A stretch of DNA of 64,000 bases from Oscillospiraceae bacterium (GCA_015063385.1 SVUG01000005.1:5043-69042), one strand, 5' to 3'. Shown: positions 28,624 through 44,927, counted from the stretch's first letter. Numbers and translations: made by a program. The notes: generated by a model from the sequence alone, not told the origin.

Positions 28624-31600
28624 TTATTCTGCTGTAATTGCGCTGTAATAAGTATTGTCAAGGTAAATGCTGCCCTGAGTTTTTGCCGGAATATGCACTC
28701 GAATAAATCTTAGCGCGCTTGTGGTTTTGGTATTGGAGCCTGTGTAAAGAAGCTCACCGTTAACGTAGACTCTTATCTCGTTTCCGGTCGTGCTCATGTT
28801 TTTAAACTCGTATCTGATATTGAACCACTCGCCCTCGTTAAGCGACACCTGCTTATCTCCACACATCAGGCTATAGGTTGTAGTACTGTCCGAGTTACTG
28901 ACGACACAAAGCCTTGCCTGTGGCATACCGTTCCAGTGAGTAGCTATGCTGGCTGCCTGCGAATTGGAGCTGTAGAAAGCAAGGAACTCATAATTGTTAT
29001 CGGATCTGCCGCTTCCGGCACCCGTAAACATAATGTCGGTTTCGAAAACGTACTTGCTTCCCAAGGCGTCTGCTTGAATATTAAAATATGCTTCGGAGTT
29101 GTAGGCATTATTTGAAAGCTTGAGTGCAGAGTCACCGTCAACCAGCTCGACAGATGCGCTCATAGTAGCACCGTCCAAGGTGCCAGTGCCGCTAGTAATG
29201 AGCTTACCTGCTTCGCCAAGCGCGGTTGCCGTGGTGTCGGTATAGGTCAGGGTGTTATCGTTATCCGCATAAGCACCGTTGCCTCTGCCGGCAGTGGCAG
29301 GGGTATCGCCGGGCTGCTCAGGCTCATCTGCCACGGGGTCAAGCGCACCGAAGTAGACGTTATCAAGATGAAGTATACCGCTCGTCTTGTCGGGCATCCA
29401 TATTACCATAGATGCGAGCGACGAAGTCTTCTTGTCGGTCGTACCCGTATGAACGAGCGTTCCGTTCAGATAATACTTAACGTCGCCGCCGGTGGTGACG
29501 TCAGCTATGTCTATTCTGACGTTATACCACACCTCAGGAGTCAGCTCGATTTTAGTCGTATTGCCCTCGCCATTATTAACGCTCGCAACGAAGTAAAGCT
29601 TTCCGTCCTCTACGGTGATTGACGCACCTATGCCAAAGTACGCCGTGTTGGAGCTTTTCGTAGTAGAGCCCCAAAGCTGGAAGGCTATCTTGTCGGTTCT
29701 GCTGCTGCTCGCACGGTCAAGCTTTAGGTCTGCTTCGAGAACGTAGTGCTTGCCGCTGTTAGTCAAGGAATTGAGATAAATATATCCTGCCTTGCCGTAA
29801 GCGTTGCCAAGCTTGAGAGCGTTGTCATCGCCCTCGGGAGCAACCATTATACCTGCTGCAAATGCATCAACGTTTACCGCACTGTCAGCGCCGAGCTCGC
29901 CGCTTTCTATGAGATCGCCTGCGGTAGTATCGGTGAAGCCGAGAGAACCGTCCTTGTAATCACCTGTGCCGCGGTTAACGCTCGCGGAATTGTCGGTGCT
30001 ATCGGCAGGAATATCGGCTATCGCAACAGGAGTTATTACTGCGTCGTCCGCGTTGGGAATTACCGATGCGTCAATGCAGGTCTTGCCCGCTACGGTCTTG
30101 ACGAGTGCATAGCTCACGCTCTCGCCCTGAGTGATCTTTACCGCCTCCCAGGTATCGGGAGTGAGAGCTCTTACCGTAAGAGGATAGTTATAAATATTCT
30201 GATCAAGAGTATGAGTAAGAGTAAGCGTTATGGTATTCTCCGCGCTGACTGCCGTCACGGTAGCTGCGTGAGCCTCACGGGTGTAAAGCACGGCATCCTC
30301 GTAGAAGGCTACCCATACCTTGCCGTCGTTCTGAAGCCTTGCAACTGCCTCACATATGGTACGCAGATCCTTCTCGTACATCTGATTTGATGAAAGAGTA
30401 TCGTTGTTCGCCGCTAGCATATGAGTGAACAGCACTGCCATCTCACCGTTCTGTGTCTTCTCTATCGCGCTGAGTATTTCATCAACGTTCGAGCCGGAGA
30501 ACTGATAAGAGGGTGAAAATTTCCAATCAACGTTTTTGTCGGAGAGGCTGATATTCGCATTGCCGTAGGAATCTCTGCCTGCAATATAATAATTACCAAC
30601 CATCTCTTTCATTACCGCGGAGAATCTGTCGTCGCCGTACGTCGCCTTCTCGCTCCAGTATCCCGGATATGCATAAGTAAGCACGCGCTGGGACGGGAAC
30701 GCCTCGCGCAGAACGCTCTGCGAGGTAATAATCTCCTTGGTTATCAAGCCTGCGGAATCGTCAAGACCGGGGAAGTTGTGAGTCATGGAGTGCGAGCTGA
30801 GCTGCCATCTGCCCGTATCGAGATATCTTTGCCAGGTTGCAATTTTGCTCGCGTCAAGCACGCCGTCGGTATAAATTGCACCATTTGGATACATCGCAAT
30901 ATTTCCGCGAAGACCAAGCTCACGAAGCACCTCATCCATGATGTACATAGTACTTGATGCATCGTCGTGCATAAGAACGACTATACCGTCAGCACCGGTT
31001 GCAGTGGAGAGGATATTTGCACTGTTCTGAACGGTGTCGGCAGGATCGGGAGGAGTGATAACAACCTCATCGCCCGAGCCGCCCTCGTCACCCTCCTCCC
31101 CGGCGTCAAGCGCACCGAAGAAGGTGTTGTCAAGAGAAAGAGTTCCGAGTGCCTTCGTAGGAAGCCAAATTCTTATATACGAAAGAGCCGTACAGCTCTT
31201 TGTGGTAGCAAGAGTATTTATAAGCTCTCCGTTAAGATAATATTTTACTGCAGAGCCTGAAACAGAAACGTTTTCAAATTCAACCCTGAGGTTAAACCAC
31301 GTGCCCGCAGCAACCTGGTATTTTGCCGTGCCAATCTCTATGCTGATAACGCCGTCGTTGATACAAATTACAGGTCTGGTCCAGAACCAAGCAGTTGCAT
31401 CAGCGCTGCTGCCGGCAAGTATTTCGTAGAGCGCGCCGCCATCACGAGCACTGCTGTTGGCAATAACGGAGGAGTCAAGCATCATATCGGTTTCAAAGAC
31501 GTACTTTGTACCCGAGGTCGATGCCTTTATATTCAGATAACCCTGAGGTATATACTGATTATTTCCAAGAACGAGGGCGTTATCACCCGCCGCGGCTGCA

Positions 31601-34600
31601 ACCTTAATGAATATATTTTCTCCGTCAAGAGTTGCACCGTTGTTTGCTACGAGCTTACCTGCTTCTCCAAGGGCGGTTGCCGTAGTGTCGGTGTAGGTTA
31701 AAGTGTTCTCGTTGCTTGCGTAAGAGCCGCTGCCGCGAACGTACGTCGGGCCGGGAATTGCGGGAAGCTCAACCTTAGGCTCTTCCTGCTCGGGCTCGTC
31801 GGGCAAAATATCGCCCGTTGCCGCGAAGTAGGTGTTGTCAAGATACATTTTTCCGGTAGTATTCAAATTAAATCTAAGAAGCATATGGGAAGCTCCGCTT
31901 GCGGCTCTGGTATTTGCCGCAGAGTGAACGAGCTCACCGTTAAGGTAATACTTCACGAGACTGCCGCTTGCAAGTCCCTCAATTTCTATTCTCAGGTTGT
32001 ACCACTTGCTTGCTTCAAGAGCGCCCTCATAAGAATTGCCCTCTGCGTCAGTTCCTGCAAATGCAAGAGAATATGCGCCGTCTACAACTCTTATGCTACC
32101 CGAAGCACCGCCCCAGAAAATAGAATCAGAGGCATTCTGCGCGAGATAGAAGGAGAACAGATTGTTGTCGTCAGGACGCCATTCCGAGCCGCTCATAAGA
32201 GCAAAGTCGGTTTCAAATATATACGACGAGCCTGAGCGCTTTTCAGTGGGAAGAATGTAGAGCCACGGGTCACCCGTTCCGGTGGTTTTACCGTAATCAA
32301 GAGCCGCATCGCCCTTAATTCCAACTATTTTAGCGTATGCCATTCCCGAGATGTCACTTGGGTCGTAGGTCAGGCCGCTCGTGCCGAGCTTCTTGTCTAT
32401 GCTGAGAAGAGTAGCATTGGTGTCGGTGTACTGCACCGCGCTGTCCTTCTTGGTACCCGTGCCGCGTTTCGTCGCGTCGATAGCACCCGCTCCGACGATT
32501 TCCTCAATATTTACGGGAGGAATAATTACCGTATCGTCCTTAGGAAGATCCTTAACCGCGGAGAAATAAACGTTATCCATCAGAATCTGGCTCAGAGAGC
32601 TCTTGAGTCTGATACGTATCTGCATTCTTGCCAAAGCGTCGGAGGTGGCAGTGGTCAGTCTCTTCTGAACGAGAGTGTCGTTAATATAAATTCTTACCTC
32701 GCTGCCCTTCGTGCTTATATCCTGAATCTCTATACGGTAGTTATACCATACCTTCTGGTCGATAAACACGTTCTTGGCTGCGTCTACGTTGTAGCGCTGA
32801 ACTCCCTCGTAAACGTCAGCACTATATATGTGCGGGCTCGCAGAGAAGAATATTTTTCCGTTCTCGTCAGCGAAGAAGAATGAAAACAGTTGCTTGTCGT
32901 CCATCGAGGTCGTACCGTCTATGATACATATATCGGCTTCGAATACGTAGCTGTTAGCGTCGGTGGACTGAGCGTAAAGGTAGAGATACGGGTCACGCTG
33001 AGCTGATTTCTTAAAGGAAAGAATATTGGAGTAATCTCTGTCCTCTATAATAGTCGCATTAGTGGAGTAGTTGTAGTTATCAAACAAAAGCTGAGTAGGC
33101 TTATCAGTACCCAAAATGCCCTTGTTTACCATAGCGGTTGCCGTGGTTTTTTCAAAGTCGAGAGAATTCTCCTTGTACTTACCCTTGCCGTAATTGTCAC
33201 CGTTGTCAATCTCCAGATGAATATCCTGATCCACCTTAAGAGCGTGACCGAGATGAGCAAGGATATAGTTAAAGTGATACATATCAGCAGACGTGTATAT
33301 CGGCACCATGTTGCTTATGCCAAGGCAGGTATATATCAGAGATACAGTTCCTGAGGTACAGATATTAGTCGCGTTTACGTCACCCTCCTCGGTGTAAGGA
33401 AGTGCCGCAACGCAGCCCTGAGACTCATGTGCGGAATATTTGGGTGTGTAAGAGAATGAGCCGTCAGGCTTCATGAACGTAGCAAGCTTTTCTTTCGTTG
33501 CAGAGATAAGCTCTGCTGCCCTCTCGCGAAGATCGCTTCTTGCATTATCAACGATTGCTATGCCCTCCGGTCCGCCCGAAAGCGAGAGTATGCTGAATAT
33601 GTTGCTTATCGTAAACCAGGTGTTATAAATATCTACGCAAGCACCAACCTCCTCGTCGGAGCTGATGGCATCCATAGCCGCGCGAAGCGCCTTGTCGGAG
33701 TTGGGCATCATAACCTGTGCCGCCTCGTATACGCAGGAAATCTTCATTACGCCGTTTACTGCGTAATATTCAGAATAGGAGGGGTCGCTCTCGGATACGT
33801 AGTACCAGGTACCCGTTTCCTTGTTCTGCGCGTCGTTGAGGTGCTCTATCAAAATCTCTATGAGGTCATAATCCGCGCCCTCTCTTTGAAGCTCGTAATT
33901 GCGGGATCTTATCGTGTTGAAATATGATGCAAGAGTATTACCTGCTGCATAGGAATTATTCTTTACGTCAAGCGTGTTGAGGTAATTTCTGAAGCTCTCC
34001 TCATCGGCAAGATTTGCGTCGGTATTGGAGGCGGTCAGAATTGCCTCGGAAGCACCAACTGCAAAGCTTCTGGAAAGTCTTGCGGTTAGAGCCGCCGCGA
34101 GCTTCACACCCGAGCCCTTCACTCCGTTGGGAGTATCGTAAATGGGCTGAAGACCAAGTCTTTGAAGAATGCTCTCCGAACGCATAAGGTCACGGCCCTT
34201 ACGGCTGGTGCTGACTCCGTCACCCCACTGAGGATGATAGAAATATCCGCTCTCATCCTGAAGCGAGATAACGAATCTACCAATCTGGTCAAGAATTTCA
34301 TCGGGAAGGCTCTTGGTATAGTCGACGGTCATACCCGAGTTCTCAAGGAATGATAGTATCTGCTGCGTGCTTTCAACGTCAGGCAGATAGCCTTTAGTAT
34401 TTCTTGCGCTGTTAGAGTAATAGAAGCCGCCCGTGCCGCAGCTTGCGCCGCCTGCACATACGTCCGCAATGCACTGGCAGATTTCAGGCTCGTAAAGGTT
34501 TGCCATCCATACTATGAGGTCATCGCTGTAAATGGTATAAAGATCCTTGAGGGCGGAAACGATTTCCTCACCGTTCTCAAAGCTGCTTGCAATCACGCCC

Positions 34601-35166
34601 CACTGAGCCTCGCGCAAAATTTCGTCCTCTGCCGAGTAGAATTCAAATATATTAGCCGCGTCCTTGTGCACCACTCCGGGCTCAAGAACAAGCGCGTCAA
34701 CAACAAGATTCTTTACACAGTAATCAATCGCTGCGCGAACGCCTATGTAATCGTCATTTTCTTCAAAGGCTATTGCTATCGACTTTCCGTCGGTATATAT
34801 AAGCCATTTGACGTAGTTTTCCTCGTCGTCGGCAATCTCATCGGAGAGATAGAGGTCGGCAAGTCTTCTGTACGCCTCTATAGCAACAGGGCGGTTGGAC
34901 ATACCCACGACTATTTCATTTTCGTACGGAGTGCCGTCCTCTTCAGCCATCTTCACGTTAGTTTTCAGCGCCAGGGCGTTAGAAAACGTCGAGGCATATC
35001 CGCCCGAATACTCGCTGTCGAGGAAGCCGAGAGTTGAACCCTTGGAGTATATCGCCCCTTCAACAACCTCGGGTCCCTCGTCATTTCCTTTTATCAGGAA
35101 TATGGCGGTCACGACTCCGGCTATCGCCAGAATCAGCGCTACTATGATAATTGCAATTCTTCTCAT
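28624..35166 (-). CDS. giant membrane-anchored surface protein: N-domain + repeat-helical toroid-like domain + 5 LamG-like modules + CE4-like deacetylase insert
   Basis: 2180 aa with N-terminal signal anchor MRRIAIIIVALILAIAGVVTAIFLI. Blocks are shared with the 437-, 693- and 894-aa neighbours. LamG-like signature W[YF]N[LVIY]R[IV][ED]...[VI][KR][YV]Y[ILV]N[GD][ET]L...[LM]DN[TV][YF][FY] occurs five times. CE4-like motifs LMHDDAS, HSMTH, YAYPGY and LFTHML. Confidence 0.85.
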   Translation of the reverse strand: MRRIAIIIVALILAIAGVVTAIFLIKGNDEGPEVVEGAIYSKGSTLGFLDSEYSGGYASTFSNALALKTNVKMAEEDGTPYENEIVVGMSNRPVAIEAYRRLADLYLSDEIADDEENYVKWLIYTDGKSIAIAFEENDDYIGVRAAIDYCVKNLVVDALVLEPGVVHKDAANIFEFYSAEDEILREAQWGVIASSFENGEEIVSALKDLYTIYSDDLIVWMANLYEPEICQCIADVCAGGASCGTGGFYYSNSARNTKGYLPDVESTQQILSFLENSGMTVDYTKSLPDEILDQIGRFVISLQDESGYFYHPQWGDGVSTSRKGRDLMRSESILQRLGLQPIYDTPNGVKGSGVKLAAALTARLSRSFAVGASEAILTASNTDANLADEESFRNYLNTLDVKNNSYAAGNTLASYFNTIRSRNYELQREGADYDLIEILIEHLNDAQNKETGTWYYVSESDPSYSEYYAVNGVMKISCVYEAAQVMMPNSDKALRAAMDAISSDEEVGACVDIYNTWFTISNIFSILSLSGGPEGIAIVDNARSDLRERAAELISATKEKLATFMKPDGSFSYTPKYSAHESQGCVAALPYTEEGDVNATNICTSGTVSLIYTCLGISNMVPIYTSADMYHFNYILAHLGHALKVDQDIHLEIDNGDNYGKGKYKENSLDFEKTTATAMVNKGILGTDKPTQLLFDNYNYSTNATIIEDRDYSNILSFKKSAQRDPYLYLYAQSTDANSYVFEADICIIDGTTSMDDKQLFSFFFADENGKIFFSASPHIYSADVYEGVQRYNVDAAKNVFIDQKVWYNYRIEIQDISTKGSEVRIYINDTLVQKRLTTATSDALARMQIRIRLKSSLSQILMDNVYFSAVKDLPKDDTVIIPPVNIEEIVGAGAIDATKRGTGTKKDSAVQYTDTNATLLSIDKKLGTSGLTYDPSDISGMAYAKIVGIKGDAALDYGKTTGTGDPWLYILPTEKRSGSSYIFETDFALMSGSEWRPDDNNLFSFYLAQNASDSIFWGGASGSIRVVDGAYSLAFAGTDAEGNSYEGALEASKWYNLRIEIEGLASGSLVKYYLNGELVHSAANTRAASGASHMLLRFNLNTTGKMYLDNTYFAATGDILPDEPEQEEPKVELPAIPGPTYVRGSGSYASNENTLTYTDTTATALGEAGKLVANNGATLDGENIFIKVAAAAGDNALVLGNNQYIPQGYLNIKASTSGTKYVFETDMMLDSSVIANSSARDGGALYEILAGSSADATAWFWTRPVICINDGVISIEIGTAKYQVAAGTWFNLRVEFENVSVSGSAVKYYLNGELINTLATTKSCTALSYIRIWLPTKALGTLSLDNTFFGALDAGEEGDEGGSGDEVVITPPDPADTVQNSANILSTATGADGIVVLMHDDASSTMYIMDEVLRELGLRGNIAMYPNGAIYTDGVLDASKIATWQRYLDTGRWQLSSHSMTHNFPGLDDSAGLITKEIITSQSVLREAFPSQRVLTYAYPGYWSEKATYGDDRFSAVMKEMVGNYYIAGRDSYGNANISLSDKNVDWKFSPSYQFSGSNVDEILSAIEKTQNGEMAVLFTHMLAANNDTLSSNQMYEKDLRTICEAVARLQNDGKVWVAFYEDAVLYTREAHAATVTAVSAENTITLTLTHTLDQNIYNYPLTVRALTPDTWEAVKITQGESVSYALVKTVAGKTCIDASVIPNADDAVITPVAIADIPADSTDNSASVNRGTGDYKDGSLGFTDTTAGDLIESGELGADSAVNVDAFAAGIMVAPEGDDNALKLGNAYGKAGYIYLNSLTNSGKHYVLEADLKLDRASSSRTDKIAFQLWGSTTKSSNTAYFGIGASITVEDGKLYFVASVNNGEGNTTKIELTPEVWYNVRIDIADVTTGGDVKYYLNGTLVHTGTTDKKTSSLASMVIWMPDKTSGILHLDNVYFGALDPVADEPEQPGDTPATAGRGNGAYADNDNTLTYTDTTATALGEAGKLITSGTGTLDGATMSASVELVDGDSALKLSNNAYNSEAYFNIQADALGSKYVFETDIMFTGAGSGRSDNNYEFLAFYSSNSQAASIATHWNGMPQARLCVVSNSDSTTTYSLMCGDKQVSLNEGEWFNIRYEFKNMSTTGNEIRVYVNGELLYTGSNTKTTSALRFIRVHIPAKTQGSIYLDNTYYSAITAE

Positions 35167-36476
35167 TCAGATATGCTCCTTTCGGTTGTTTTTTCGGTTA
35201 ATCTTCTTTTTTCAATTATGCTCATATATCTATCAAAATCACAGCGTACAAAAAGCGGTACCTTGTAATCGGACAGGTCAAGTCCGCGGTAAACGTGGGA
35301 TAACAGTCCCGTTGCCGCAAGAATATGTCCGTTTATATCTCCCTCAGGGCTGCGCTCTATCGCTACGGGCATACCCTGTGAGGTTTGCGAGGAGAAATTA
35401 ACGCCGTAGGAGAACGAGCCGCTCTCCTTTTTAAACGCCACGACCTTTTTTGCCGTTGCGCGAATGGCTTCGGGTGCGGCGGCACGCACGGTGCGGATTA
35501 CCTCCTCCGCTTCCCTTTCGCCGTTCTCACCGCACTCGCGGAGCGAGCGAATCAGGTTGCCTATGGCAAACCAAGGGTTAAAGAGGTCTACTGCCCCGTT
35601 GACAGGCTCGTCGGAGAGCAAAACTCTGATGCAAGAGCCTGCAAGAGCCTTCGCGTGAGGGACTATGCGATGCATACCGTTGTATACACAAGTGATTTTC
35701 ATAACGCCGTTAATGGCAAAATAATTTTCTTCTTTATGCCACAGTCCGTTTTCGAACTGATGCTCATTCAAAAAATCAATACACTGATCCACAAGGCCCG
35801 CGTGCTTTATCATATCGGTCTGGCACGTCAGCTCGTGTCCTGTGGAGTATGATTGCTCGTTTATATTCCTTGATTCGAGGAATTCTGCAAACTTTTCTTT
35901 ACTTTTAAGGTGTTCAGGAAGAACTATGTCCTTTGATTCCTTTGCTTTTGCTCCGTCTGAAATGGAGACGTATTTCTTCGTTCTGCCGAAGGAGTTGAGT
36001 ATTTTGTTCGCCCACATCAAATCTCTGCTTCGTCTGGAGAAATTGATGTCCTTGCCCCAATGCTCGTGATAAAAATATCCGTCGGGGTCCTGCAGAGAGA
36101 GCGTCCATTCTGACAAATCATTCTGCATCCAATCGGGAAGCGCAAGTGACAGCTTGTTATCAAAGTCCTCTATCATTCCGCTGGACTCAAAGAAGCCAAG
36201 CGCCTGCGAGGTCGACTCAAGATCGGGACGCAGAAGATAGGTCTTACCCTTATATTCTCGGCTATCGTTGTCACGCGCACTGGCTGAATAATACCAGCCT
36301 GCACCGCTGACGTCATATAACGAGGCAAACCAGTCTATTGCATCGGGAGTATACACCTCGTACAGCTCCTTCATAGCATCGACTATCTCCTCACCGTTTT
36401 CACCGCCGATGGCGGCTGCAAGCGCGCGCCATCTGGGCTCGCGTATCTGTTCTCTTTGAATTTTATAGCTGTCCAT
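35163..36476 (-). CDS. cytoplasmic stand-alone paralog of the repeat-helical toroid-like domain
   Basis: 437 aa, no signal peptide. Colinear with aa about 183-640 of the 2180-aa protein (NGEEIV.A.K.LY, LQDPDGYFYHEHWG, AINGVMKITCVY, KKESGSFSYG). Its stop overlaps the next ATG (ATGA at 35163..35166). Confidence 0.8.
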   Translation of the reverse strand: MDSYKIQREQIREPRWRALAAAIGGENGEEIVDAMKELYEVYTPDAIDWFASLYDVSGAGWYYSASARDNDSREYKGKTYLLRPDLESTSQALGFFESSGMIEDFDNKLSLALPDWMQNDLSEWTLSLQDPDGYFYHEHWGKDINFSRRSRDLMWANKILNSFGRTKKYVSISDGAKAKESKDIVLPEHLKSKEKFAEFLESRNINEQSYSTGHELTCQTDMIKHAGLVDQCIDFLNEHQFENGLWHKEENYFAINGVMKITCVYNGMHRIVPHAKALAGSCIRVLLSDEPVNGAVDLFNPWFAIGNLIRSLRECGENGEREAEEVIRTVRAAAPEAIRATAKKVVAFKKESGSFSYGVNFSSQTSQGMPVAIERSPEGDINGHILAATGLLSHVYRGLDLSDYKVPLFVRCDFDRYMSIIEKRRLTEKTTERSISE

Positions 36477-36586: not shown

Positions 36587-38668
36587 TTACTGAATCGCCT
36601 TAAAGCATGTGTTGTCAATGTAAATATTTGCAGTAGAGCTTGGAGGTGCCCAGAGACGAATGAAGCGGAATGCCGTAGTGGTCTTAGTTGTAGCACCGGT
36701 GTATATAAGCTCACCGTTTACGTAATATTTAATTGCGCTACCGGTTGTCTTCCAGTCTTCAAACTCGAATCTGATATTCACCCACTCACCGGGGTTAACG
36801 ACCACCTTGCCTTCTCCGCGCTCGACGTAATAGGTTGTCACGTCATCAACCGTCTTCGCAGTGAATGCAAGAGATGTCATGCCTCCCCAGAAGGACGAAC
36901 TACCGTCAGTAGCCGTAGAGCTGTAGAACTGAAGGAACTCGTAATTCTGAGAGCTTCTGTTACTTGTAGCATCGATGAACATAATATCTGTTTCGAAAAC
37001 GTACTTATTTTTATTAAGAACGTCACTGGCAATATTGAAATATCCTGCAGATGCACTGGGATTGTTGGAAAGATGAAGCGCAGCATCACCATTTACGTTA
37101 ACTACTGATGCAGTGATACCCTCGCCGTCGAGAGTTGCACCGTTGGTAGCTGTCATCTTGCCTGCCTCGCCAAGAGCGGTTGCTGTAGTTCCGGTATAGG
37201 TAAGAGTGTTAGCGTCGGATGCGTAGCTACCCTCGCCGCGGCTACCTGCGTTGCCAACCGTGCCGAAGAAGGTGTTATCAAGGTAGAGAGTACCGGTAGC
37301 GGTCTTTCCATCAGCGCCGGGCATGCAAATACGTAGCTGGGAAATGCTGTTAGTGCTGGCAGCCTTCGTGCCCGAGCCAACGAGCTGACCGTTTACGTAG
37401 TATTTGATAACGTGATCAGCCTGCTTAACGTCCTCGAACTCAACGCGAAGGTTAATCCAGGAGTCAAGATCAAAGGTATAATCAAGACCCGTTGCAGTCA
37501 TTCTCAAAACGGGATTTTCGGCATCGGTAGTATCGTAGCTGATAGTAATGCTATCAAGCGCCCAGTTAACAAACGTCGCACCACCGTAATAGATGTGGAA
37601 GATTTCGCCGCCGGTACGCGTGCTTGCACAAGCAGCAACGTCGCTGTTAACCTTCAGGTCGGTTTCAAACGCGTAGACGTTGCCAATCTCGGGGCTGAAT
37701 CTGGGAATGTTTATGTAAGCCTCGTTTGAAGGAGCATTGCTTACGAAGCGTAGCGCGTAGTCACCGTTATCAAGCACGTGCTCTGCGTATAGGCCTTCAT
37801 TTTCAACGGCTTCACCCTTTTGAGTAGTGGTTGCCCACGTAGATATATTGCTAAAATCATTAGCACGGTCAAGGTAAATACCCGTACCGCGATAGGTGTG
37901 AGGAACGCAAAGAACGCTCTCTGTGACGCTGAAGGTTTCACCGTCAGATACCGTATCAACAAGCTCGCCTGCCTTGTTGTAGAGATTCCAGGTATCTGCC
38001 TTCTCATCACCCGTGTAGGTAAGAGAAATTTCGTCACCTACGAGGTAAGCACCCTTCTTATACTCTCCTGTGACGATACCGTCGGTCACCTTAACGTATC
38101 TGTAATTGGTGGGAATATCGTCTGCACCGCCGGGATAGTAATCGAGAAGAAGCTGTGCTGCGTCGCCTGCTGCAAGGAGCTTGCCGTAAGCCTCAGCCTT
38201 ATCCTCGTTATCGGTGGTAAAGATCATCTCGTTAAGATACTCAACTACGCTATATCTTCTCACAGGGCTCTTCGTGCCGTCAGCGGCAACAGCCTGAACG
38301 AAGAACTCGGTAGCAAGGTTCTTGAGTGCAACACCGGGAGTCTCAAACGCACGGCAGGTATAGCTTACGTCCTCGCCGCCGGGAATTACTACTTCCTCGT
38401 GAGCGGTGACGGTAGCAAGAAGCTCTGCCTCTGCATTCTTATCGGGATCTGCGGCGTATACGTTGAGCACCAAGCCCTCGGTATCCACGTTCTCGGGATA
38501 AACCGCATAGTAGAGATACATTTTTTCTGAATATTCAACCTTCTGGCTGATGATGTTAAGGCTCTTTTCAGGCTCACTCTCAACTGCAAAAGCAGTAATG
38601 CCGATGCAAGAAGCAACAAGGAGAACGAGCGAGATAGCCAGAACTATAATTTTAGTCTGTTTTTTCAT
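36587..38668 (-). CDS. secreted/lipoprotein member of the LamG-module family (unknown N-domain + 2 LamG-like modules)
   Basis: 693 aa. Signal MKKQTKIIVLAISLVLLVASC. The C-terminal module resembles the last module of the 2180-aa protein, including the linker RGEGSYASDANTLTYTGTTATALGEAGKM. Confidence 0.85.
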   Translation of the reverse strand: MKKQTKIIVLAISLVLLVASCIGITAFAVESEPEKSLNIISQKVEYSEKMYLYYAVYPENVDTEGLVLNVYAADPDKNAEAELLATVTAHEEVVIPGGEDVSYTCRAFETPGVALKNLATEFFVQAVAADGTKSPVRRYSVVEYLNEMIFTTDNEDKAEAYGKLLAAGDAAQLLLDYYPGGADDIPTNYRYVKVTDGIVTGEYKKGAYLVGDEISLTYTGDEKADTWNLYNKAGELVDTVSDGETFSVTESVLCVPHTYRGTGIYLDRANDFSNISTWATTTQKGEAVENEGLYAEHVLDNGDYALRFVSNAPSNEAYINIPRFSPEIGNVYAFETDLKVNSDVAACASTRTGGEIFHIYYGGATFVNWALDSITISYDTTDAENPVLRMTATGLDYTFDLDSWINLRVEFEDVKQADHVIKYYVNGQLVGSGTKAASTNSISQLRICMPGADGKTATGTLYLDNTFFGTVGNAGSRGEGSYASDANTLTYTGTTATALGEAGKMTATNGATLDGEGITASVVNVNGDAALHLSNNPSASAGYFNIASDVLNKNKYVFETDIMFIDATSNRSSQNYEFLQFYSSTATDGSSSFWGGMTSLAFTAKTVDDVTTYYVERGEGKVVVNPGEWVNIRFEFEDWKTTGSAIKYYVNGELIYTGATTKTTTAFRFIRLWAPPSSTANIYIDNTCFKAIQ

Positions 38669-38704: not shown

Positions 38705-38866
38705 TTACCAATCGCGAGGATCTACGGGAGTCCACTCGCCTCCGTTTCCTTCACCATCGGGGTCAAGCGTGCCGCCGCCCGACGTTGTAATCACGTCTGC
38801 AGTAGAAAACAAAACGATCTTCATTTTTGCTTCCTCATACGCTTTCTTTAGTTCAAGAGTATTCAC
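38705..38866 (-). CDS. small ORF (53 aa from GTG 38866; 59 aa from ATG 38884), first gene of the 693/437/2180 operon
   Basis: GGAGGT lies 6 nt before the GTG. Translation (M)NTLELKKAYEEAKMKIVLFSTADVITTSGGGTLDPDGEGNGGEWTPVDPRDW. Below the 60-aa track cutoff. No family recognised. Confidence 0.45.
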   Translation of the reverse strand: MNTLELKKAYEEAKMKIVLFSTADVITTSGGGTLDPDGEGNGGEWTPVDPRDW

Positions 38867-38908: not shown

Positions 38909-38937
38909 ATAATATCATATATAAACAAAAAGTGTTA
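38909..38937 (-). promoter_or_regulatory. promoter of the small-ORF/693/437/2180 operon (weak -35)
   Basis: Minus-strand TAACAC (38937..38932), 17 nt spacer, TATTAT (38914..38909). The same layout occurs upstream of the 894-aa gene. Confidence 0.5.
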
Positions 38938-38955
38938 GCAAAATATATAAAAGAT

Positions 38956-38973
38956 ACTTGTAAAATTCATAGA
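38956..38973 (-). promoter_or_regulatory. conserved 18-mer TCTATGAATTTTACAAGT (candidate AraC-regulator site)
   Basis: Lies 18 nt upstream of the TAACAC box. 16/18 identical to 44975..44992 at the same spacing. Overlaps the -35 of the divergent araC-type promoter. Confidence 0.5.
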
Positions 38974-38986
38974 TTTATGTTATAAT
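38958..38986 (+). promoter_or_regulatory. araC-family gene promoter, copy 1 (drives the truncated copy)
   Basis: TTGTAA (38958..38963), 17 nt spacer, TATAAT (38981..38986). Confidence 0.55.
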
Positions 38987-39028
38987 AAATAACAAAAAGG
39001 ACAAAAAGCAAAAGGGAAGGAGAAAAAT

Positions 39029-39406
39029 ATGATTTCACATATAGGTACGAAGGCTACGCTGGCACCCCAGGATTTGTATCCCGACCACACTCATCATTGC
39101 TTTGAAATAACCTATATACACGAGGGGTGCGGCTTTATGCACACCGCAAACGGTGACATGCCGTTTGAGAAAAACAGCTTTTACATTATACCGCCCAACG
39201 CGATACACAGTCTGGTTTCAGCCAACGGGCACATAGCAACGTCCATGCTAACCAGAAACGAGCGCCTATCAAGCATACGCGACGTGATGTGGGCAAGAGA
39301 CGTTGTAATCACGTCTGCAGTAGAAAACAAAACGATCTTCATTTTTGCTTCCTCATACGCTTTCTTTAGTTCAAGAGTATTCACGTTTTTACCTCCATTC
39401 ATCTAA
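39029..39406 (+). pseudogene. truncated duplicate of the AraC-family regulator (cupin half only)
   Basis: The first 92 codons are identical to 39547..39822. At the duplication junction the frame runs into antisense small-ORF sequence (VITSAVENKTIFIF...). No HTH domain. Confidence 0.85.
39181..39402 (-). pseudogene. chimeric duplicate of the small ORF
   Basis: The first 35 codons are identical to the intact copy (MNGGKNVNTLELKKAYEEAKMKIVLFSTADVITTS). It then reads antisense through the truncated araC copy. Confidence 0.75.
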
Positions 39407-39473
39407 TTTTTTATTATTCCATTTTAATAATATCATATATAAACAAAAAGTGTTAGCAAAATATATAAAAGAT

Positions 39474-39504
39474 ACTTGTAAAATTCATAGATTTATGTTA
39501 TAAT
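39474..39504 (+). promoter_or_regulatory. copy 2 of the 18-mer and araC-family promoter (drives the intact regulator)
   Basis: Exact duplicate of 38956..38986, shifted by 518 bp. Confidence 0.55.
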
Positions 39505-39546
39505 AAATAACAAAAAGGACAAAAAGCAAAAGGGAAGGAGAAAAAT

Positions 39547-40296
39547 ATGATTTCACATATAGGTACGAAGGCTACGCTGGCACCCCAGGATTTGTATCCC
39601 GACCACACTCATCATTGCTTTGAAATAACCTATATACACGAGGGGTGCGGCTTTATGCACACCGCAAACGGTGACATGCCGTTTGAGAAAAACAGCTTTT
39701 ACATTATACCGCCCAACGCGATACACAGTCTGGTTTCAGCCAACGGGCACATAGCAACGTCCATGCTAACCAGAAACGAGCGCCTATCAAGCATACGCGA
39801 CGTGATGTGGGCAAGAGACGTTGATAATCACGAGCTCGAGAGCATTATAAAAATTATGGTCGAGCACAGGAGCGACCTTGGTGAATTTTTGCAGTATCTC
39901 GGAAAGGCCGTGGTGCTGATTATGCTTGATTTGATTGGAATAGACGAGCTGGAGCAGGCTCGTTCTAAGGCCGTTGAGCAGATAATTACCAAAATCAACC
40001 GTCATTTTTCCGACCCTGAGTTCAAGGTTAAGACCGCGCTCGAAGAATCGCCTTACGCTGAGGATTACATCAGAGAAATTTTTAAGGCACAAACCGGCTT
40101 GACGCCAATGCAGATGCTCTCCGAGGTGCGCCTCAAGCACGCGGAAAATATTATGCTTTACTCATTGTCGGAGCGTTCAATATCCAATATTGCGCTAGAG
40201 AGCGGATTTGACGACCTCGCTTACTTTTCCAAGGTGTTCAAAAAGCGATTTGGAATGTCGCCCGCGGAATATAAGAAAAAGAACGGCAAGCTCTGA
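39547..40296 (+). CDS. AraC-family transcriptional regulator (cupin sensor + AraC HTH)
   Basis: 249 aa with GGAAGGAG RBS. The C-terminus ISNIALESGFDDLAYFSKVFKKRFGMSPAEYKK is a typical AraC second HTH. Confidence 0.9.
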   Translation: MISHIGTKATLAPQDLYPDHTHHCFEITYIHEGCGFMHTANGDMPFEKNSFYIIPPNAIHSLVSANGHIATSMLTRNERLSSIRDVMWARDVDNHELESIIKIMVEHRSDLGEFLQYLGKAVVLIMLDLIGIDELEQARSKAVEQIITKINRHFSDPEFKVKTALEESPYAEDYIREIFKAQTGLTPMQMLSEVRLKHAENIMLYSLSERSISNIALESGFDDLAYFSKVFKKRFGMSPAEYKKKNGKL

Positions 40297-40363: not shown

Positions 40364-42076
40364 TTAAAACGTTTTTGTTTGTTTTGTTATATTTCGGTAT
40401 ATTTCCTTCACCGCGAAGAAGGACGCCTTCGGATTTCTGTATTCGTTAAGAAGTCCCTTGTTGTTGTAGCCTCTTGCGCGAGAAATTCCCGCCTCGTACG
40501 AGGTTCTGACGTCACAGAATTGCCAGATGTACGTGCCGACCATCATGGGATCGCCAAGGAACAGATTCAAGCAGTGCGAAAGCAATCTCGCCTGATATTC
40601 CTCGCTCCAGCGATAAGTTTCAAAATTGCGGTGACCGTACACTGCTGCGCCGCCGAACTCGCTCATGATTACGGGCTTGTTATCAAAGCCGAGCTTGCTC
40701 CTGTACGCGCGGAAGTCCTCGATGAATTTACCCCAGGATTCAATGTCACCCTCGTACCAGCCGTTGTACTGGTTAAGACAGATGATATCACAGTATTCAA
40801 ATGAAATATCGCTAAGCGCCTTGTTAGAAGCATAGGTGACGATGCGGTTGCCGCCGATTTCCTTTAAGAGCGAGTAATACTTTTTAGTCATTTCAAGACC
40901 GGCAACGGTATCCGAAAGAATTTCGTTATGCATACCCCAAATTATGATAGAGGGATGGTTGTAATAATGCTTTACCATCTCACGATGCATTTCCTCGCCT
41001 CGACGAATTACCACGGGGTCAAGAAGCACGCTCTCCTCAAATCCAACGCCCCAAATCGGGATTTCGCTCCAGAAGGTTATTCCCCTCTCGTCGAGCATGT
41101 CAACGAATGCAGGATTGTTTGGATAATGAGCTCCGCGGAGCGAGTTGCAGCCCATGTCGACAGCAATATCAATGTCGCGCCTCATGAGCGCGCTCGGAAA
41201 GGCAAAGCCGAAGTCGGGGTGGTCCTCGTGCCTGTTTACACCGCGGATGCGGTATTCGCTACCGTTGAGCAAAATTTTGCCGTCGCTCACGCATATTTTA
41301 CGGAAGCCAACGCGGTCAAAAAGGTCATCAGATGAGGTTGAAATTTTCACATCATATAGTGCCGGATTTTCCGCAGACCATAGCGAAAAATCAGTAATTT
41401 TGACAGCATTTGTAAATTCTTCTTTACATTCCCCCGCTTTTAAGAGCGATTCAAATTCAAAATCGGCGCCCGCGACGCTAACCCTTATAGTATCTTTTAT
41501 TTCTTTTTCGGAGGCATTATACAGTTCAAGGGCGACTCGAAGATTAAGCTCGCAAAGATCGTCGGAAAGCTCGTACTCCACCCTGTTTGAAAGTATCGAA
41601 ACACCCTCAAGGCGCTCAACGCTTACGGAACGAATAATACCTCCGCAGTGATACCAGTCGACCAAAGCCTGTGGAATCGACTGCTCGTCGAAGGAATTGT
41701 CTACTCTTACGGTGAGTCGATGCTCTCCGCTTGTGACGTCGCGCACTATCAGCTCAAAGGGGCAAAAGCCGCCGTAATGATAGCCTATTTCCTCTCCGTC
41801 AAGATAAACTCGCGACTCGGTCATCACCGCACCGAAAACAAAGCGCAGCGTGCCGCCGTGGCTGAAGAATTGACGCTCGTACCAAGCCACTCCCTCGTAC
41901 TCGAGCAATCCAAGCTGGGTATTCCATACGGACGGCACTATCACCGTCTGTGCGTTGGGAATCCCTCTTTGCCATCTTTCGCTATCTCCTCGATTATCGG
42001 GGTCGGTTGCAAATTTCCACGCTCCGTCGAGCGACTGCACAGCTCTTTTTATGTGTTCATCAAAAAGCCTCGTCAT
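40364..42076 (-). CDS. GH2 glycoside hydrolase (beta-glucuronidase/beta-galactosidase type), no signal peptide
   Basis: 570 aa. Motifs GAWKFATDP, YEGVAWYERQF, NRHEDHPDFG, IIWGMHNE (acid/base block) and VIMSEFGG (nucleophile block). Confidence 0.85.
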   Translation of the reverse strand: MTRLFDEHIKRAVQSLDGAWKFATDPDNRGDSERWQRGIPNAQTVIVPSVWNTQLGLLEYEGVAWYERQFFSHGGTLRFVFGAVMTESRVYLDGEEIGYHYGGFCPFELIVRDVTSGEHRLTVRVDNSFDEQSIPQALVDWYHCGGIIRSVSVERLEGVSILSNRVEYELSDDLCELNLRVALELYNASEKEIKDTIRVSVAGADFEFESLLKAGECKEEFTNAVKITDFSLWSAENPALYDVKISTSSDDLFDRVGFRKICVSDGKILLNGSEYRIRGVNRHEDHPDFGFAFPSALMRRDIDIAVDMGCNSLRGAHYPNNPAFVDMLDERGITFWSEIPIWGVGFEESVLLDPVVIRRGEEMHREMVKHYYNHPSIIIWGMHNEILSDTVAGLEMTKKYYSLLKEIGGNRIVTYASNKALSDISFEYCDIICLNQYNGWYEGDIESWGKFIEDFRAYRSKLGFDNKPVIMSEFGGAAVYGHRNFETYRWSEEYQARLLSHCLNLFLGDPMMVGTYIWQFCDVRTSYEAGISRARGYNNKGLLNEYRNPKASFFAVKEIYRNITKQTKTF

Positions 42077-42156: not shown

Positions 42157-42173
42157 TATGTCTTTAGTGTTTG

Positions 42174-44816
42174 TTAGCCCTTTGCGGCAAAGTAGGTGTT
42201 ATCAAGATATATCTGTCCTGTGGTTTTTGCATTGAAGCGCAAAAGCATATGAGATGCTGCGGATGCGCCTCTCGTAGTCACGGACGTATGAATGAGAGTG
42301 CCGTTTACGTAATACTTTACAAGGCTGCCGGTTTCAAGTCCCTCGATTTCCATTCTGAAATTATACCACTCGCCCGCAGTTATAGCACCCTCGTAGCTAC
42401 TTCCCTCCTGATTGGCAGTAGGAATGAGCAAGCTGTATCCGTCGTCGGTTGCAATTATATGGAAATGAGCTCCACCCCAGAAAATAGAATCCGAGCTGTT
42501 TTGCGAGAGATAGATAGAAAAAATTTGGTTATCGTTCGGCCTGCTTTCGCTTCCCGAAACGAGCGAGAAGTCGGTTTCAAATACGTACGACGAGCCGCCG
42601 CGCTGCTCGGTATACGGAACGTAAAGATAGGGGTCTGTGCTTGCACCGTTTCTGCCAAGCTCAAGCGCCTTGTCACCGTTGACGTCAACTACCTGGGCGT
42701 AGGAATATCCTACGGTGCTTTCCGGATCGAAGGTTATGCCGCTCGTGCCTATTTTTCCGTCTGCAGCAAGCTGAGTTGCCGTCGTGCCGTCGTATTTTAT
42801 CGCAGAATCCTTGTAATTTCCGCTACCGCGAGCTTCATCATCCGTCTGCGGAGGAGTAACGTCAGAGTCACTGTCTTCGTCATCGCTCATAGCAATCTTG
42901 ATAAAGCGCTCGTAGTCGGTTCTGGTGTAAATCGGGACCATGTCTGCTATTCCAAGGCAGCTGTATATCAAAGAGGTAGTACCCGTCACGCATATAACCG
43001 TTGCGTTTACGTCGCCCTCCTCGGTATTGGGCACTGCAGCAGGAGAGCCCTGCGATTTGTCTGCAGAATACTTGGGGGTATACGAGAACGAGCCGTCGGG
43101 CTTTTTAAAGATAGCAAGCTTTTCCTTTGTTGCCTTAATAAGCTCGGGAGCTCTGTTGTGCAGTTCCTCTCTCATCTCGTCTGAGAAACGTATATCCTGA
43201 ATGTTTCCGGTCGTGCTCAAAATAGAGAAAATATTGCTAATAGAAAACCAGGTGTTATAAATATCAACGCATGCGCCAAGCTCCTCGTCAGAGGTTATTG
43301 CATCTACTGCGGCTCGCATAGCCTTATCTGCATTTGGCATCGCAACCTTAGCTGCCTCGTATACGCAGGATATCTTCATTACGCCGTTTACAGCGTAATA
43401 TCCTGAATAATTCGGATCGTCCTTTGATACGTAATACCAAGTGCCCGTATCCTTGTTCTGTGCGTCGTTGAGGTGCTCAATCATAATATCTATGAGATCG
43501 TAATCAACGCCCTGGCGCTTAAGCTCGTTGTTGCGGGATCTGATAGTGTTGAAGTATGCGGCAAGAGTATTGCCCGCGCTATAAGAGTTATTCTTCACGT
43601 CAAGACGGTTGAGATAGTTCTTGAAGCTGACGTCATCAACGAGATTTGGATCGGTGGTAGATGCTGCCGAAACAACCGACGATGCTCCCGTGGCATAAGC
43701 AGTGGACAAGCGAGAGGTGAGTGCAACACTTGACGCGACGGCGCCACTACCCTTTGTACCGTTGGGGGTATCGTAAATAGGAGTTAAGCCAAGGTTTTTA
43801 AGTATGTTCTCCGACCACATAAGGTCGCGGCTCTTTCTGCCTAAAAAGACGTTCTTTCCCCATAGCGGGTGATAGAAATAGCCGTCGGGGTCCTGAATTG
43901 CAAGAACGTATCTGCCTATTCCGTCGAGCATTTCCTTCGGGAGCGTCTTGGCATAATTGTTAGTCATACCTGCTTTTTCAAGGAAACTGAGCGTCTGATT
44001 CGTGCTCTCAACGTCGGGTAAATATCCCTCGTTATCCCTTGCGCTGTTGGAGTAATAGAAGCCACTGGTGCCGCAGGTCTTACCGCCTATGCACACGTCG
44101 CCCGAGCACTGACAAATTGACGGCTCGTAAAGCCCCGCCAGCCAATCAACAGTGTCATCTCCATACAGCGTATACAAATCCTTCAGTGCAGCGGCGATCT
44201 TTTCACCGTTTCCCGTCAGCGTAGAAATTATCTGCCACTTGACGTTTAGCTGCGCCTCGTCCTCGGCCTCCTTAAAGGCGGTAATGCTTACCACGTCGGA
44301 TGAAACGACGCCGGGGTCAAGAATAAGGGTATCCTTCACCAAATTTTTGATAAAATAATCTATCGCAGAGCGAAGCGCTATATCCTCTTCGTTCTCATCA
44401 TATGCAACAGCCACGGATTTTCCGTCGGTGTATATCAGCCAACGCGCGCAGTCATCGGGGTTGTTTTTCATTTCATCGGTCAGCGAAACGTCCGAAAGCT
44501 TCTCATAAGCAGTCTTGGATACTGCTCTCTCAGATATTCCTATAACTACCTCATTCTCATAAGGAGCTCCGCTTTCAGAGGCAATTTTAAGGTGTGTTTT
44601 AAGCGCGAGAGCATTTGAAAGAGAGGAGGTATAATCGAGATTTCCGACAGATAAAAATCCCAGAGTCGATCCCTTAGAGTATATCGCCCCCTCAACTATA
44701 TCCGTAGGTTCTTTTCCGCCTTCGTTTTGAGTAGCATCTCCGAAAATAATCGAGCAGGATGCCATAGACGATACCGTCAAAACCAATACCAGAATTAAAG
44801 ATATAACTCTTTTCAT
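42174..44816 (-). CDS. surface lipoprotein paralog: N-domain + toroid-like domain + one LamG-like module
   Basis: The track ORF is 42174..44858. Start set at ATG 44816 (GGAGA 7 nt upstream). Signal MKRVISLILVLVLTVSSMASC. Colinear with the first roughly 1100 aa of the 2180-aa protein minus its first LamG-like module. Confidence 0.85.
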   Translation of the reverse strand: MKRVISLILVLVLTVSSMASCSIIFGDATQNEGGKEPTDIVEGAIYSKGSTLGFLSVGNLDYTSSLSNALALKTHLKIASESGAPYENEVVIGISERAVSKTAYEKLSDVSLTDEMKNNPDDCARWLIYTDGKSVAVAYDENEEDIALRSAIDYFIKNLVKDTLILDPGVVSSDVVSITAFKEAEDEAQLNVKWQIISTLTGNGEKIAAALKDLYTLYGDDTVDWLAGLYEPSICQCSGDVCIGGKTCGTSGFYYSNSARDNEGYLPDVESTNQTLSFLEKAGMTNNYAKTLPKEMLDGIGRYVLAIQDPDGYFYHPLWGKNVFLGRKSRDLMWSENILKNLGLTPIYDTPNGTKGSGAVASSVALTSRLSTAYATGASSVVSAASTTDPNLVDDVSFKNYLNRLDVKNNSYSAGNTLAAYFNTIRSRNNELKRQGVDYDLIDIMIEHLNDAQNKDTGTWYYVSKDDPNYSGYYAVNGVMKISCVYEAAKVAMPNADKAMRAAVDAITSDEELGACVDIYNTWFSISNIFSILSTTGNIQDIRFSDEMREELHNRAPELIKATKEKLAIFKKPDGSFSYTPKYSADKSQGSPAAVPNTEEGDVNATVICVTGTTSLIYSCLGIADMVPIYTRTDYERFIKIAMSDDEDSDSDVTPPQTDDEARGSGNYKDSAIKYDGTTATQLAADGKIGTSGITFDPESTVGYSYAQVVDVNGDKALELGRNGASTDPYLYVPYTEQRGGSSYVFETDFSLVSGSESRPNDNQIFSIYLSQNSSDSIFWGGAHFHIIATDDGYSLLIPTANQEGSSYEGAITAGEWYNFRMEIEGLETGSLVKYYVNGTLIHTSVTTRGASAASHMLLRFNAKTTGQIYLDNTYFAAKG

Positions 44817-44927
44817 TTTACAATCTCCTTCTATCAACGGCAGCGATTCAAAGCTCAACTATTAATAATCGATGCCGATGCAAAATCTCGTTTTAAAATT
44901 ATCCTTTTAAAAGGTTAATTCACCCTA

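Follow-up and report, generated by a model that had tools for sequence, protein, structure and literature searches.

Polysaccharide utilization loci of Gram-positive bacteria (gpPULs), as defined for Roseburia and Eubacterium rectale, combine a regulator, a carbohydrate transport system and one or more enzymes that degrade polysaccharides (Sheridan et al. 2016; PMC5320581). Here we describe a locus that would formally fit this definition, found in a 64,000-nucleotide stretch from an Oscillospiraceae bacterium (GCA_015063385.1 SVUG01000005.1:5043-69042; hereafter the window, in whose positions all coordinates are given). It encodes an AraC-family regulator (HTH_18 6.9e-20), a transporter of the major facilitator superfamily (MFS) whose sugar specificity is putative (MFS_1 2e-24, with a weak match to the sugar-transporter family MFS_2 at 1e-4), and, as the only candidates for polysaccharide degradation recognized in the locus, exo-glycosidases of the glycoside hydrolase (GH) families GH2 and GH123 together with a domain resembling carbohydrate esterases of family CE4. 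The four genes analyzed here, g2180, g437, g693 and g894, are named by the length of their products in amino acids (aa). The locus represents a single copy of a five-gene cassette that comprises an AraC regulator, a micro-peptide, a lectin-like secreted protein, a helical protein of the cytoplasm and a giant form of the latter at the cell surface. We read the region, with middling confidence, as a Gram-positive polysaccharide utilization locus of unusual, lineage-specific build, in which cleavage would be supplied by unannotated modules, either an alpha/alpha-toroid-like helical domain (the toroid) or jelly rolls resembling the polysaccharide lyase (PL) family PF14099.

Like the gpPULs (PMC5320581), the locus gathers an AraC-type regulator, a transporter and genes for carbohydrate-active enzymes (CAZymes) within one co-directional cluster, with multimodular exported proteins that carry binding modules and with final breakdown in the cytoplasm. 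Unlike them, the exported proteins of the cassette have no recognized GH or PL catalytic domain, the cassette core consists of four unannotated families (micro-peptide, N693, cytoplasmic toroid and giant toroid), and a linked transporter is often missing among the best 75 cassette loci, which come from 15 metagenome-assembled genomes (MAGs). As a kind of system, a Gram-positive polysaccharide utilization locus with an AraC regulator is already known. What is new is a fixed five-part core of families without Pfam, NCBIfam or PDB relatives, much expanded in one uncultured lineage, as well as the division of the toroids into cytoplasmic and exported forms and a micro-peptide that ends in Trp and has cassette-matched tails. 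A literature search found no relevant description of such a system.

The modules of the cassette can likewise be set beside described proteins. Like the toroid enzymes of GH88/GH105, GH15 and PL8/PL15/PL17/PL38, the toroid is composed of all-helical hairpin repeats with conserved polar residues at or just ahead of alternate helix starts, is followed by beta-sandwich modules, and lies in a context that implies an anionic substrate; unlike them, it shows no kinship by sequence or by hidden Markov model (HMM), its Foldseek matches have E-values of at least 0.05 and template modeling (TM) scores of at most 0.42, and catalytic residues cannot be equated. The surface glycan-binding proteins (SGBPs) of Bacteroides, and carbohydrate-binding modules and lectins of the ConA/LamG type, are similarly lipoproteins or anchored surface proteins made of beta-sandwich or jelly-roll modules, and SGBP-B is among the fold matches; in contrast to Bacteroides SGBPs, the proteins described here belong to a Gram-positive envelope, have no SusC/D partner and show no sequence kinship. 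The CE4-like insert shares with CE4 (NodB) deacetylases an invariant HDD, HSxTH and a later His, and its best PDB profile matches are CE4 enzymes, but it is very divergent, with PDB E-values of only 0.01-0.04 and no Pfam match in the window. A further comparison is by analogy. The SigI/RsgI systems of Clostridium thermocellum are multi-paralogue polysaccharide sensors, and RRNPP and ComX/ComQ are peptide-signal systems; features in common with the present case are many paralogous cassettes of a regulator and an exported sensor per genome, and a small peptide gene beside a helical-repeat protein, with the key part of the peptide at its C-terminus. Unlike in these systems, no sigma/anti-sigma domains, TPR/HTH receptor, peptide signal or modifying enzyme were recognized.

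The conservation of the cassette became apparent from a scan of 185,579 species-representative genomes, which yielded 319 toroid-encoding stretches, the best 80 of which gave 75 loci in 15 MAGs; locus counts rest on these best toroid stretches, labels of the form L0xx denote individual loci, and some counts are taken over 79 loci. The initial annotation of the window had described a locally shuffled set of paralogs, whereas the locus is instead one copy of a cassette conserved in these 75 loci. The 15 MAGs belong to uncultured gut Clostridia/Eubacteriales (Oscillospirales) of animals, and a single MAG contributes as many as 10 of the best loci. The loci encode 77 'big' toroid proteins of 677-2733 aa, with a signal-like N-terminus in 71 of 77 and a lipobox in 59 of 77, and 110 'small', toroid-only proteins with a median length of 424 aa and a signal in about 0 of 110. 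The N693 family, comprising relatives of the N-terminal 260 residues of g693, accounts for 61 proteins in 47 of 79 loci, and 32 of the 79 have AraC neighbors of the family (36 genes). In 39 of the 75 loci, big, small, N693 and peptide genes occur together (in 24 of those with AraC too), and the parts of these 39 complete cassettes are co-directional. Most often, in 17 cases, they are arranged as AraC (divergent), big, small, peptide, N693; the order of the window, peptide-N693-small-big, was seen four times, including in L073, which also has GH20C and a GH2 homologous to the GH2 of the window. The C-terminal parts of 41 big proteins contained no GH or PL catalytic family, only Laminin_G_3, PF14099, Laminin_G_2, one Polysacc_deac_1 and the like. 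A consistent link of the cassettes with transporters or classical endo-CAZymes was sought and not found, and the non-housekeeping neighbors of paralogous cassettes are cytoplasmic exo-glycosidases (GH20/GH20C, GH2, GH43, GH39 and DUF4838). Tandem arrays of toroid genes alone were also observed: L002 has a run of six small toroid genes, and L060 a run of six genes for big lipoprotein toroids.

In the window, the four minus-strand open reading frames (ORFs) lie exactly where the initial annotation had placed them, and Pfam bears out its AraC, GH2, MFS and GH123 assignments; its parts list, however, missed a micro-peptide gene (38705..38866, minus strand, an ORF with a GGAGG ribosome-binding site) between AraC and g693. 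The AraC gene (39547..40296, plus strand) encodes a cupin/AraC_binding domain and HTH_18 (AraC_binding 4.4e-6; HTH_AraC 7.5e-14), and is divergent from the first unit and convergent on GH2. On the minus strand, g693 (36587..38668; 693 aa, an exported protein of the N693 family) is followed after 110 nt by g437 (35163..36476; 437 aa, a cytoplasmic alpha/alpha-toroid-like protein), whose stop overlaps the start of g2180 (28624..35166; a giant exported protein of 2180 aa) by 4 nt; after gaps of 58 and 35 nt come the MFS transporter (27273..28565), on the same strand, and GH123 (25549..27237), the final gene of the putative operon. Because of this spacing, g693-g437-g2180-MFS-GH123 are suggested to form a single minus-strand transcription unit. 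The 58-nt gap between g2180 and MFS holds a 10-bp GC-rich palindromic hairpin (28594-28617), which could attenuate read-through into MFS-GH123. A second unit of two genes, also on the minus strand, comprises g894 and, 97 nt further on, GH2 (40364..42076), with a promoter-like site at 44957-44928; a terminator-like hairpin at 45057-45088 sets it apart from the ABC genes upstream. For the spacer between AraC and g693 a known RNA element was excluded, as Rfam had no match at E<=0.1 across 24000-46000.

Predicted locations divide these products between surface and cytoplasm. The N-terminus of g2180 is a signal anchor, MRRIAIIIVALILAIAGVVTAIFLIK, and that of g693 is a hydrophobic helix. The full ORF of g894 spans 42174-44858 (894 aa), but an AGGAG ribosome-binding site precedes the ATG at 44816 and the lipobox reads MASC, and this ATG is likely the real start, giving an 880-aa lipoprotein (42174..44816). 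No signal peptide was found in g437, the ORF of which cannot be extended upstream, and an N-terminal hydrophobic signal sequence was looked for in GH2 and GH123 without success, in agreement with the initial view that both lack export signals. A 2180-aa protein identical to g2180 was found in other metagenomes, and a protein identical to g693 bears the label 'Ruminococcaceae bacterium'.

BLASTP among the four proteins reproduced the scheme of three shared blocks that had been proposed, together with its copy numbers. Blocks i (an N-domain) and ii (the toroid) are common to g2180 (residues 1-640) and g894, and block ii alone makes up g437: residues 1-870 of g2180 match 15-892 of g894 at 53% identity (E=0), and g437 matches g2180 at 177-636 (32%, 7e-67) and g894 at 207-655 (33%, 3e-78). 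Block iii, a ConA-like module, is present five times in g2180 (at about 643-872, 873-1118, 1144-1352, 1717-1941 and 1950-2177), twice in g693 (260-472 and 476-691) and once in g894 (677-892), with pairwise E-values of 1e-16 to 1e-81, far past chance, and with the RG.G.Y...TDTTAT linker ahead of the modules as described. On the minus strand of the window, g2180 has its N-domain at 34639-35067, its toroid at 33259-34638, ConA-like modules 1-3 at 32551-33240, 31813-32550 and 31111-31737, the CE4-like domain at about 30022-30999, and modules 4-5 at 29344-30018 and 28636-29319; the N-domain, toroid and ConA-like module of g894 lie at 44244-44699, 42894-44240 and 42183-42830. No other paralogue was found elsewhere in the window. 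The hand count of 66 identical residues in a 78-residue stretch of g2180 (440-517) and g894 (460-537) is exact, but the recent duplication or gene conversion deduced from it does not stand. Nucleotide identity over the stretch is about 0.8, and the third codon positions of identical residues agree only to about 0.6; recent gene conversion between the two genes is rejected on account of this divergence at synonymous sites, and the similarity therefore reflects protein constraint, not a young copy.

The toroid is the most informative of the three blocks, and was subjected to structure prediction followed by Foldseek, which the initial annotation had proposed. The AlphaFold2 (AF2) model of g437, built with 48 homologues, is very confident and all-helical with about 14 helices (predicted local distance difference test, pLDDT, 96.6; predicted TM score 0.94). 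Compared with 350,000 PDB chains, it had no match at E<=1e-3; its weak matches are all alpha/alpha toroids (E 0.05-1, probability 0.4-0.9, TM 0.25-0.42), namely GH15 glucoamylase, class II terpene cyclases, GH105/GH88, PL38/PL17 and thioester domains. Sequence searches for relatives of the toroid in Pfam, NCBIfam and PDB, including a PDB profile search, were negative; neither g437 and g2180 nor the toroid profile drew a meaningful sequence match from PDB, and NCBIfam gave nothing for g2180, g437, g693 or g894. Six-hairpin family HMMs such as Prenyltrans, SQHop_cyclase and Glyco_hydro_88 did not match g437, and PF00432 (Prenyltrans) was touched by only 4 of 48 family members (best E 0.0023). 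The family itself is large, with 1405 clusters at 50% identity in an exhaustive profile search of 1.84 billion representatives.

In 102 cytoplasmic and 75 exported copies of the toroid, which are only about 35% identical overall, a set of residues is kept at 85-100%: W49, Y62, R68, D85, E87, Y136, H137, W140, R148, R151, D152, Y169, Y210, W246, K260, N300, K344, E378, D380 and N382. On the model, these positions gather where alternate helices start or just ahead of it (86, 146, 209, 252, 296 and 381). Six-hairpin enzymes have their active site at the starts of alternate helices, and we infer from the model that the kept residues would occupy the corresponding place. The nearest neighbor of a small toroid is another small toroid in 97 of 102 cases, and by this measure the small (cytoplasmic) and big (exported) toroids are old, separate classes, of which g437 is a cytoplasmic member, a point missed in the initial annotation. 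Block ii, labelled 'repeat-helical' in the initial annotation, is the best-conserved part of these proteins. Because of its enzyme-like conservation and its basic and aromatic pocket, we regard the toroid as the best candidate for the missing activity and the likeliest cleaving module.

Block iii is a jelly roll of the ConA/LamG type, as the initial annotation had supposed. Laminin_G_3 (PF13385) matches g2180 at 1792-1918 (2.1e-10; 41.4 bits versus a gathering cutoff of 27.6), and the other copies fall below the threshold (15-21 bits), yet are homologous by BLASTP. The AF2 model of g693 (pLDDT 78.9) has two all-beta modules; the protein consists of a conserved N-terminal hydrophobic helix, an N-domain at about aa 36-257 with a beta-sandwich/helical-hairpin/beta secondary structure, and the two jelly rolls, whereas most N693 homologues are about 475 aa long with a single one. 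Foldseek returned 184 PDB matches to this model at E<=1e-3, with domains of lectins, LamG or jelly-roll lyases making up most of the top 50; the search was swamped by jelly rolls, and a fold match for the N-domain was not found with the whole model. Lectin-type neighbors are sialidase lectin wings, botulinum neurotoxin (BoNT) Hc, galectins, laminin G and SGBP-B, and lyase-type neighbors are Aly36B (PL36), AlyC3 (PL7) and Cip1, the matches to lectin and lyase jelly rolls having E-values of 1e-8 to 1e-5.

By sequence comparison, some block iii copies may act as lyases. Matches to the polysaccharide lyase family PF14099 occur in g2180 at 1987-2149 (5.3e-6; 26.9 bits, under the gathering threshold of 29.9), in g693 (1.6e-3; 18.8 bits, also under threshold) and in 4 of 41 related giant proteins (best 9.2e-11), and the N693 homologue P0126 carries a precomputed match. 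One or more block iii modules might then be lyases of the PL13/PL20 type, with the toroids serving as GH88/GH105-like hydrolases for unsaturated uronate ends, an arrangement with which the lyases among the fold neighbors, the uronate implied by the uronidase-type GH2 (see below) and the presence of GH105 and GH88 among the weak fold neighbors of the toroid all agree. We nevertheless consider it improbable: the PF14099 matches in the window lie under threshold, the residues kept among the block iii copies (W.N.R.E, YY.NG and LDN..F) look structural, lectin domains fit the fold equally well, catalytic residues could not be mapped, and the exported toroid would be redundant.

The remaining domains of the giant proteins are the insert of g2180 (residues about 1390-1715) and block i. 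The CE4-like nature claimed for the insert is reasonable though weakly supported: a profile of 11 insert homologues has the CE4 enzymes 7ax7 and 2cc0 as its top PDB matches (E 0.01-0.04), and H26, D27, D28, H85, S86, H89 and H208 (HDD, HSxTH and the late His), which align with the motifs of these structures, are invariant in all 11, but Pfam gives no match to the isolated insert of the window at E<=1, and one homologue matches Polysacc_deac_1 at 7e-6. Block i gave nothing useful as an isolated domain against Pfam, and a profile of 47 N-domains found nothing in PDB; it may resemble the GH20b-type N-domains of glycosidases.

The cytoplasmic enzymes bear on the substrate. All three GH2 domains were found by Pfam in the window GH2 (Glyco_hydro_2_C 2.7e-42, Glyco_hydro_2_N 8.4e-17 and Glyco_hydro_2 9.5e-8), which falls in the beta-glucuronidase/beta-galacturonidase clade; its best PDB match is the beta-galacturonidase 6ncw (1.4e-93), followed by hybrid and classical gut beta-glucuronidases (GUS). 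The GH123-type exo-beta-N-acetylgalactosaminidase (GH123_cat 1.9e-97) is closest in PDB to 8k2l, a 'monosaccharide-releasing beta-N-acetylgalactosaminidase' (6.9e-121). Such beta-N-acetylgalactosaminidases together with a beta-glucuronidase could finish chondroitin oligosaccharides, as the paper describing them itself suggests (PMC11087588). Because the GH2 is of the uronidase type and the GH123 of the exo-beta-N-acetylgalactosaminidase (GalNAcase) type, we infer that the substrate contains beta-linked uronic acid and beta-linked N-acetylgalactosamine (GalNAc) and may be acetylated; a chondroitin-like glycan of the host is one candidate, and an exopolysaccharide of microbial or algal origin another. 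The glycan context seen in the initial annotation is thus real, as indicated by the Pfam assignments, the closest PDB enzymes and the glycosidases flanking paralogous cassettes, and its view that the substrate cannot be assigned is narrowed by the two enzymes. Further downstream in the window, genes at 45095-55205 fit the use of amino sugars and peptides. They encode an ABC transporter for amino acids (45095-47348), a peptidase of family M20, a GPH/MFS_2 transporter, a mannose-6-phosphate isomerase-like protein (PMI), a ROK protein, an Abhydrolase_3 esterase and a NagA-like amidohydrolase (52896-54047).

In the mechanism that we propose, AraC would sense a cytoplasmic sugar and drive the divergent operon peptide-g693-g437-g2180-MFS-GH123, which the g894-GH2 unit adjoins. 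Membrane-anchored g2180 and the lipoprotein g894 would be displayed on the cell surface, where their ConA-like modules and those of secreted g693 would bind the glycan and the CE4-like domain would strip its acetyl groups. Cleavage would most likely be performed by the membrane-proximal alpha/alpha-toroid, in which some 20 acidic, basic and aromatic residues would form an active site for anionic sugars; a PF14099-like jelly roll acting as a lyase could be an alternative or additional source. The MFS transporter would import the oligosaccharides, and cytoplasmic g437, the uronidase-type GH2 and the exo-beta-GalNAcase GH123 would complete the breakdown.

Several observations weigh against this reading. 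Foldseek likeness of the toroid to any enzyme is weak (E at least 0.05, TM 0.25-0.42), and catalysis is therefore argued from conservation alone. None of the exported domains of the window reaches a curated GH or PL threshold, which agrees with the earlier statement that a secreted depolymerase is not recognizable. The five tandem, diverged ConA-like modules resemble binding or spacer modules more than catalysts; transporters are not enriched near paralogous cassettes, and most of the genes flanking these are housekeeping genes. The conserved Trp-ended micro-peptide, and the match between its tail and that of the giant protein of the same cassette, are left without explanation. Some of the same facts would suit a simpler role in capture, in which g693 and the giant proteins lack catalysis and serve to bind glycans or to adhere, comparable in function to the SGBPs of Bacteroides or to adhesins of Gram-positive bacteria, and the toroid binds or scaffolds, with depolymerization left to enzymes encoded elsewhere or to other community members. 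Lectin-like folds alone were recognized in the exported parts, the fold matches include SGBP-B, galectins, sialidase lectin wings and BoNT Hc, the ConA-like modules come in many tandem copies, and neither a transporter nor an endo-enzyme is consistently linked. We regard capture alone as rather unlikely all the same, since about 20 residues kept at 85-100% in paralogues of about 35% identity exceed the usual conservation of binding sites with variable specificity, surface capture offers no evident part for a cytoplasmic paralogue that carries these residues too, and the CE4-like domain retains its metal and catalytic motifs.

The micro-peptide of the window, MNTLELKKAYEEAKMKIVLFSTADVITTSGGGTLDPDGEGNGGEWTPVDPRDW, is 53 aa long from a GTG (that with the GGAGG site) or 59 aa from an upstream ATG at 38884. 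Its homologues comprise 44 unique sequences of 38-59 aa, in which no signal peptide was found, and in 43 of 47 copies the gene lies just upstream of an N693-family gene, at a spacing that ranges from a 19-nt overlap to about 320 nt and is mostly 7-80 nt. The peptides have a basic start, the pattern K..YE.[AP].[ILV]E[IV]..[FL]...D[IV]I[TA][TA]SG, and a tail of 13-24 residues rich in Gly, Asp, Ser and Glu that closes with G.W[TV]-COOH; the aligned Trp is present in 44 of 44 unique peptides, penultimate in 29 and last in 8. Ten peptides searched against Pfam and NCBIfam at E<=10 had no match, an NCBIfam thymidine kinase line (E 0.12) being noise, and the 149 clusters of the peptide in a large protein collection are all 'hypothetical'. 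Identity as a known ribosomally synthesized and post-translationally modified peptide precursor, a pheromone or an RsgI_N-like domain received no HMM support, and radical-SAM, LanC and C39-ABC are absent from the 25 commonest Pfam families of 125 flanking genes.

The tail of the peptide recurs in the giant proteins. Those of 20 loci (L004-L073) end in an acidic and Gly-containing tail followed by GW[TSVL], and peptide and giant protein of one locus resemble each other, as in L073 (GGDMDGTSWDEN versus GGNMDGSSWDEN) and L015 (GGGYHGGAWS versus GGGYHAGAWS). The mean local alignment score of the tails is 33.5 within loci versus 23.2+-1.5 when shuffled, and not one of 5000 permutations attained the observed score. 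In most loci the codons of the matching residues have diverged at synonymous sites, and the match is therefore kept at the protein level. The giant proteins of L017, L039, L041, L028, L037 and L042 also contain runs of a Cys-rich repeat (C-x-H-x-D-x-D-G-D-x-x-C-D-x-C) in their C-termini, placed between the CE4-like domain and the Trp tail. Relatives of the peptide without the Trp occur in toroid-less loci of other Clostridia (L080-L082 and L085-L086), next to AraC and large exported proteins without a Pfam domain, and in L081-L082 also with GH78 and an ABC transporter for sugars of the CUT1 type; in one case the peptide gene adjoins a sugar ABC transporter that has GH20 or GH78 upstream. The putative pairing of W-less peptides with toroid-less loci is based on no more than three additional loci. 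As a superfamily, the peptides therefore extend beyond the toroid cassette, and P0399 is a W-ended member without a toroid.

These tails raise the possibility, which we hold to be quite unlikely, that the toroid pocket recognizes or modifies Trp-ended C-termini as tags in a cassette-specific layer of signaling, sorting or assembly; such a layer would be without precedent among described polysaccharide utilization systems. The cytoplasmic toroid would act on the micro-peptide and the exported toroid on the matching tail of the giant protein; by reading or modifying such matching, cassette-specific acidic G-x-W-T/V tails, the toroids could, though we doubt it, link expression under AraC control to the state of the apparatus at the surface, or direct its assembly. 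Loose analogies exist in CaaX recognition by prenyltransferase toroids and in C-terminal pheromone fragments bound by helical-repeat receptors. The invariant aligned Trp, the GW[TSVL] endings of giant proteins in 20 loci, and the greater similarity of tails within loci than across them despite mostly diverged synonymous sites are all consistent with this idea, as are the presence of toroid paralogues in exactly the two compartments where the tails are, the richness of the kept pocket in Arg, Lys and aromatic residues, the weak likenesses of the toroid to Prenyltrans and terpene cyclases, and two W-less peptide relatives in toroid-less loci. Against it, g2180 and g894 themselves have no Trp tail, the superfamily also occurs without toroids (W-ended P0399 included) with the peptide tied more tightly to the downstream exported protein, an exported enzyme using prenyl diphosphate is hard to rationalize, and the flanking exo-glycosidases indicate sugars.

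The region around the micro-peptide and araC may itself have been rearranged. A perfect tandem duplication of 518 bp (38781-39298 = 39299-39816), with its junction at the microhomology GACGTTG(T/A)TAATCACG, takes in the divergent promoter region together with 270 nt from the start of araC and the micro-peptide gene's 5' part, and yields a truncated, cupin-only AraC' ORF (39029-39406) as well as a chimeric peptide ORF. The corresponding locus of another metagenome (L078) lacks the duplication, and the chimeric junction ORF equals the database protein P0380, which lies on a separate short contig. Upstream in the window, on the same strand, a fructan utilization locus occupies 3849-24368. It includes two GH32 enzymes (10270-12780, with a LamG_3 module, and 17107-20637), an ABC sugar transporter (substrate-binding protein 14711-16027, permeases 12787-14680, ATPase 22887-24368), a LacI regulator (16072-17055), a PfkB kinase (20651-21577), and proteins without a convincing Pfam domain of 1302 aa (3849-7757), 441 aa (21558-22883) and 825 aa (7800-10277), the last with one sub-threshold CBM_4_9 match.

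Animal guts abound in uncultured Oscillospirales and related Clostridia, and standard CAZyme annotation sees little in loci of this kind, of which a genome of this lineage would have tens. The Trp-ended micro-peptide, with a tail matching that of the giant protein, poses a puzzle of its own that can be tested directly, and the cassette could mark utilization loci in this lineage, as SusC/D pairs do in Bacteroidetes. If the toroid is catalytic, it would found a new family of glycoside hydrolases or lyases, and would explain how acidic, amino-sugar-rich glycans are attacked by these bacteria without recognizable secreted enzymes.

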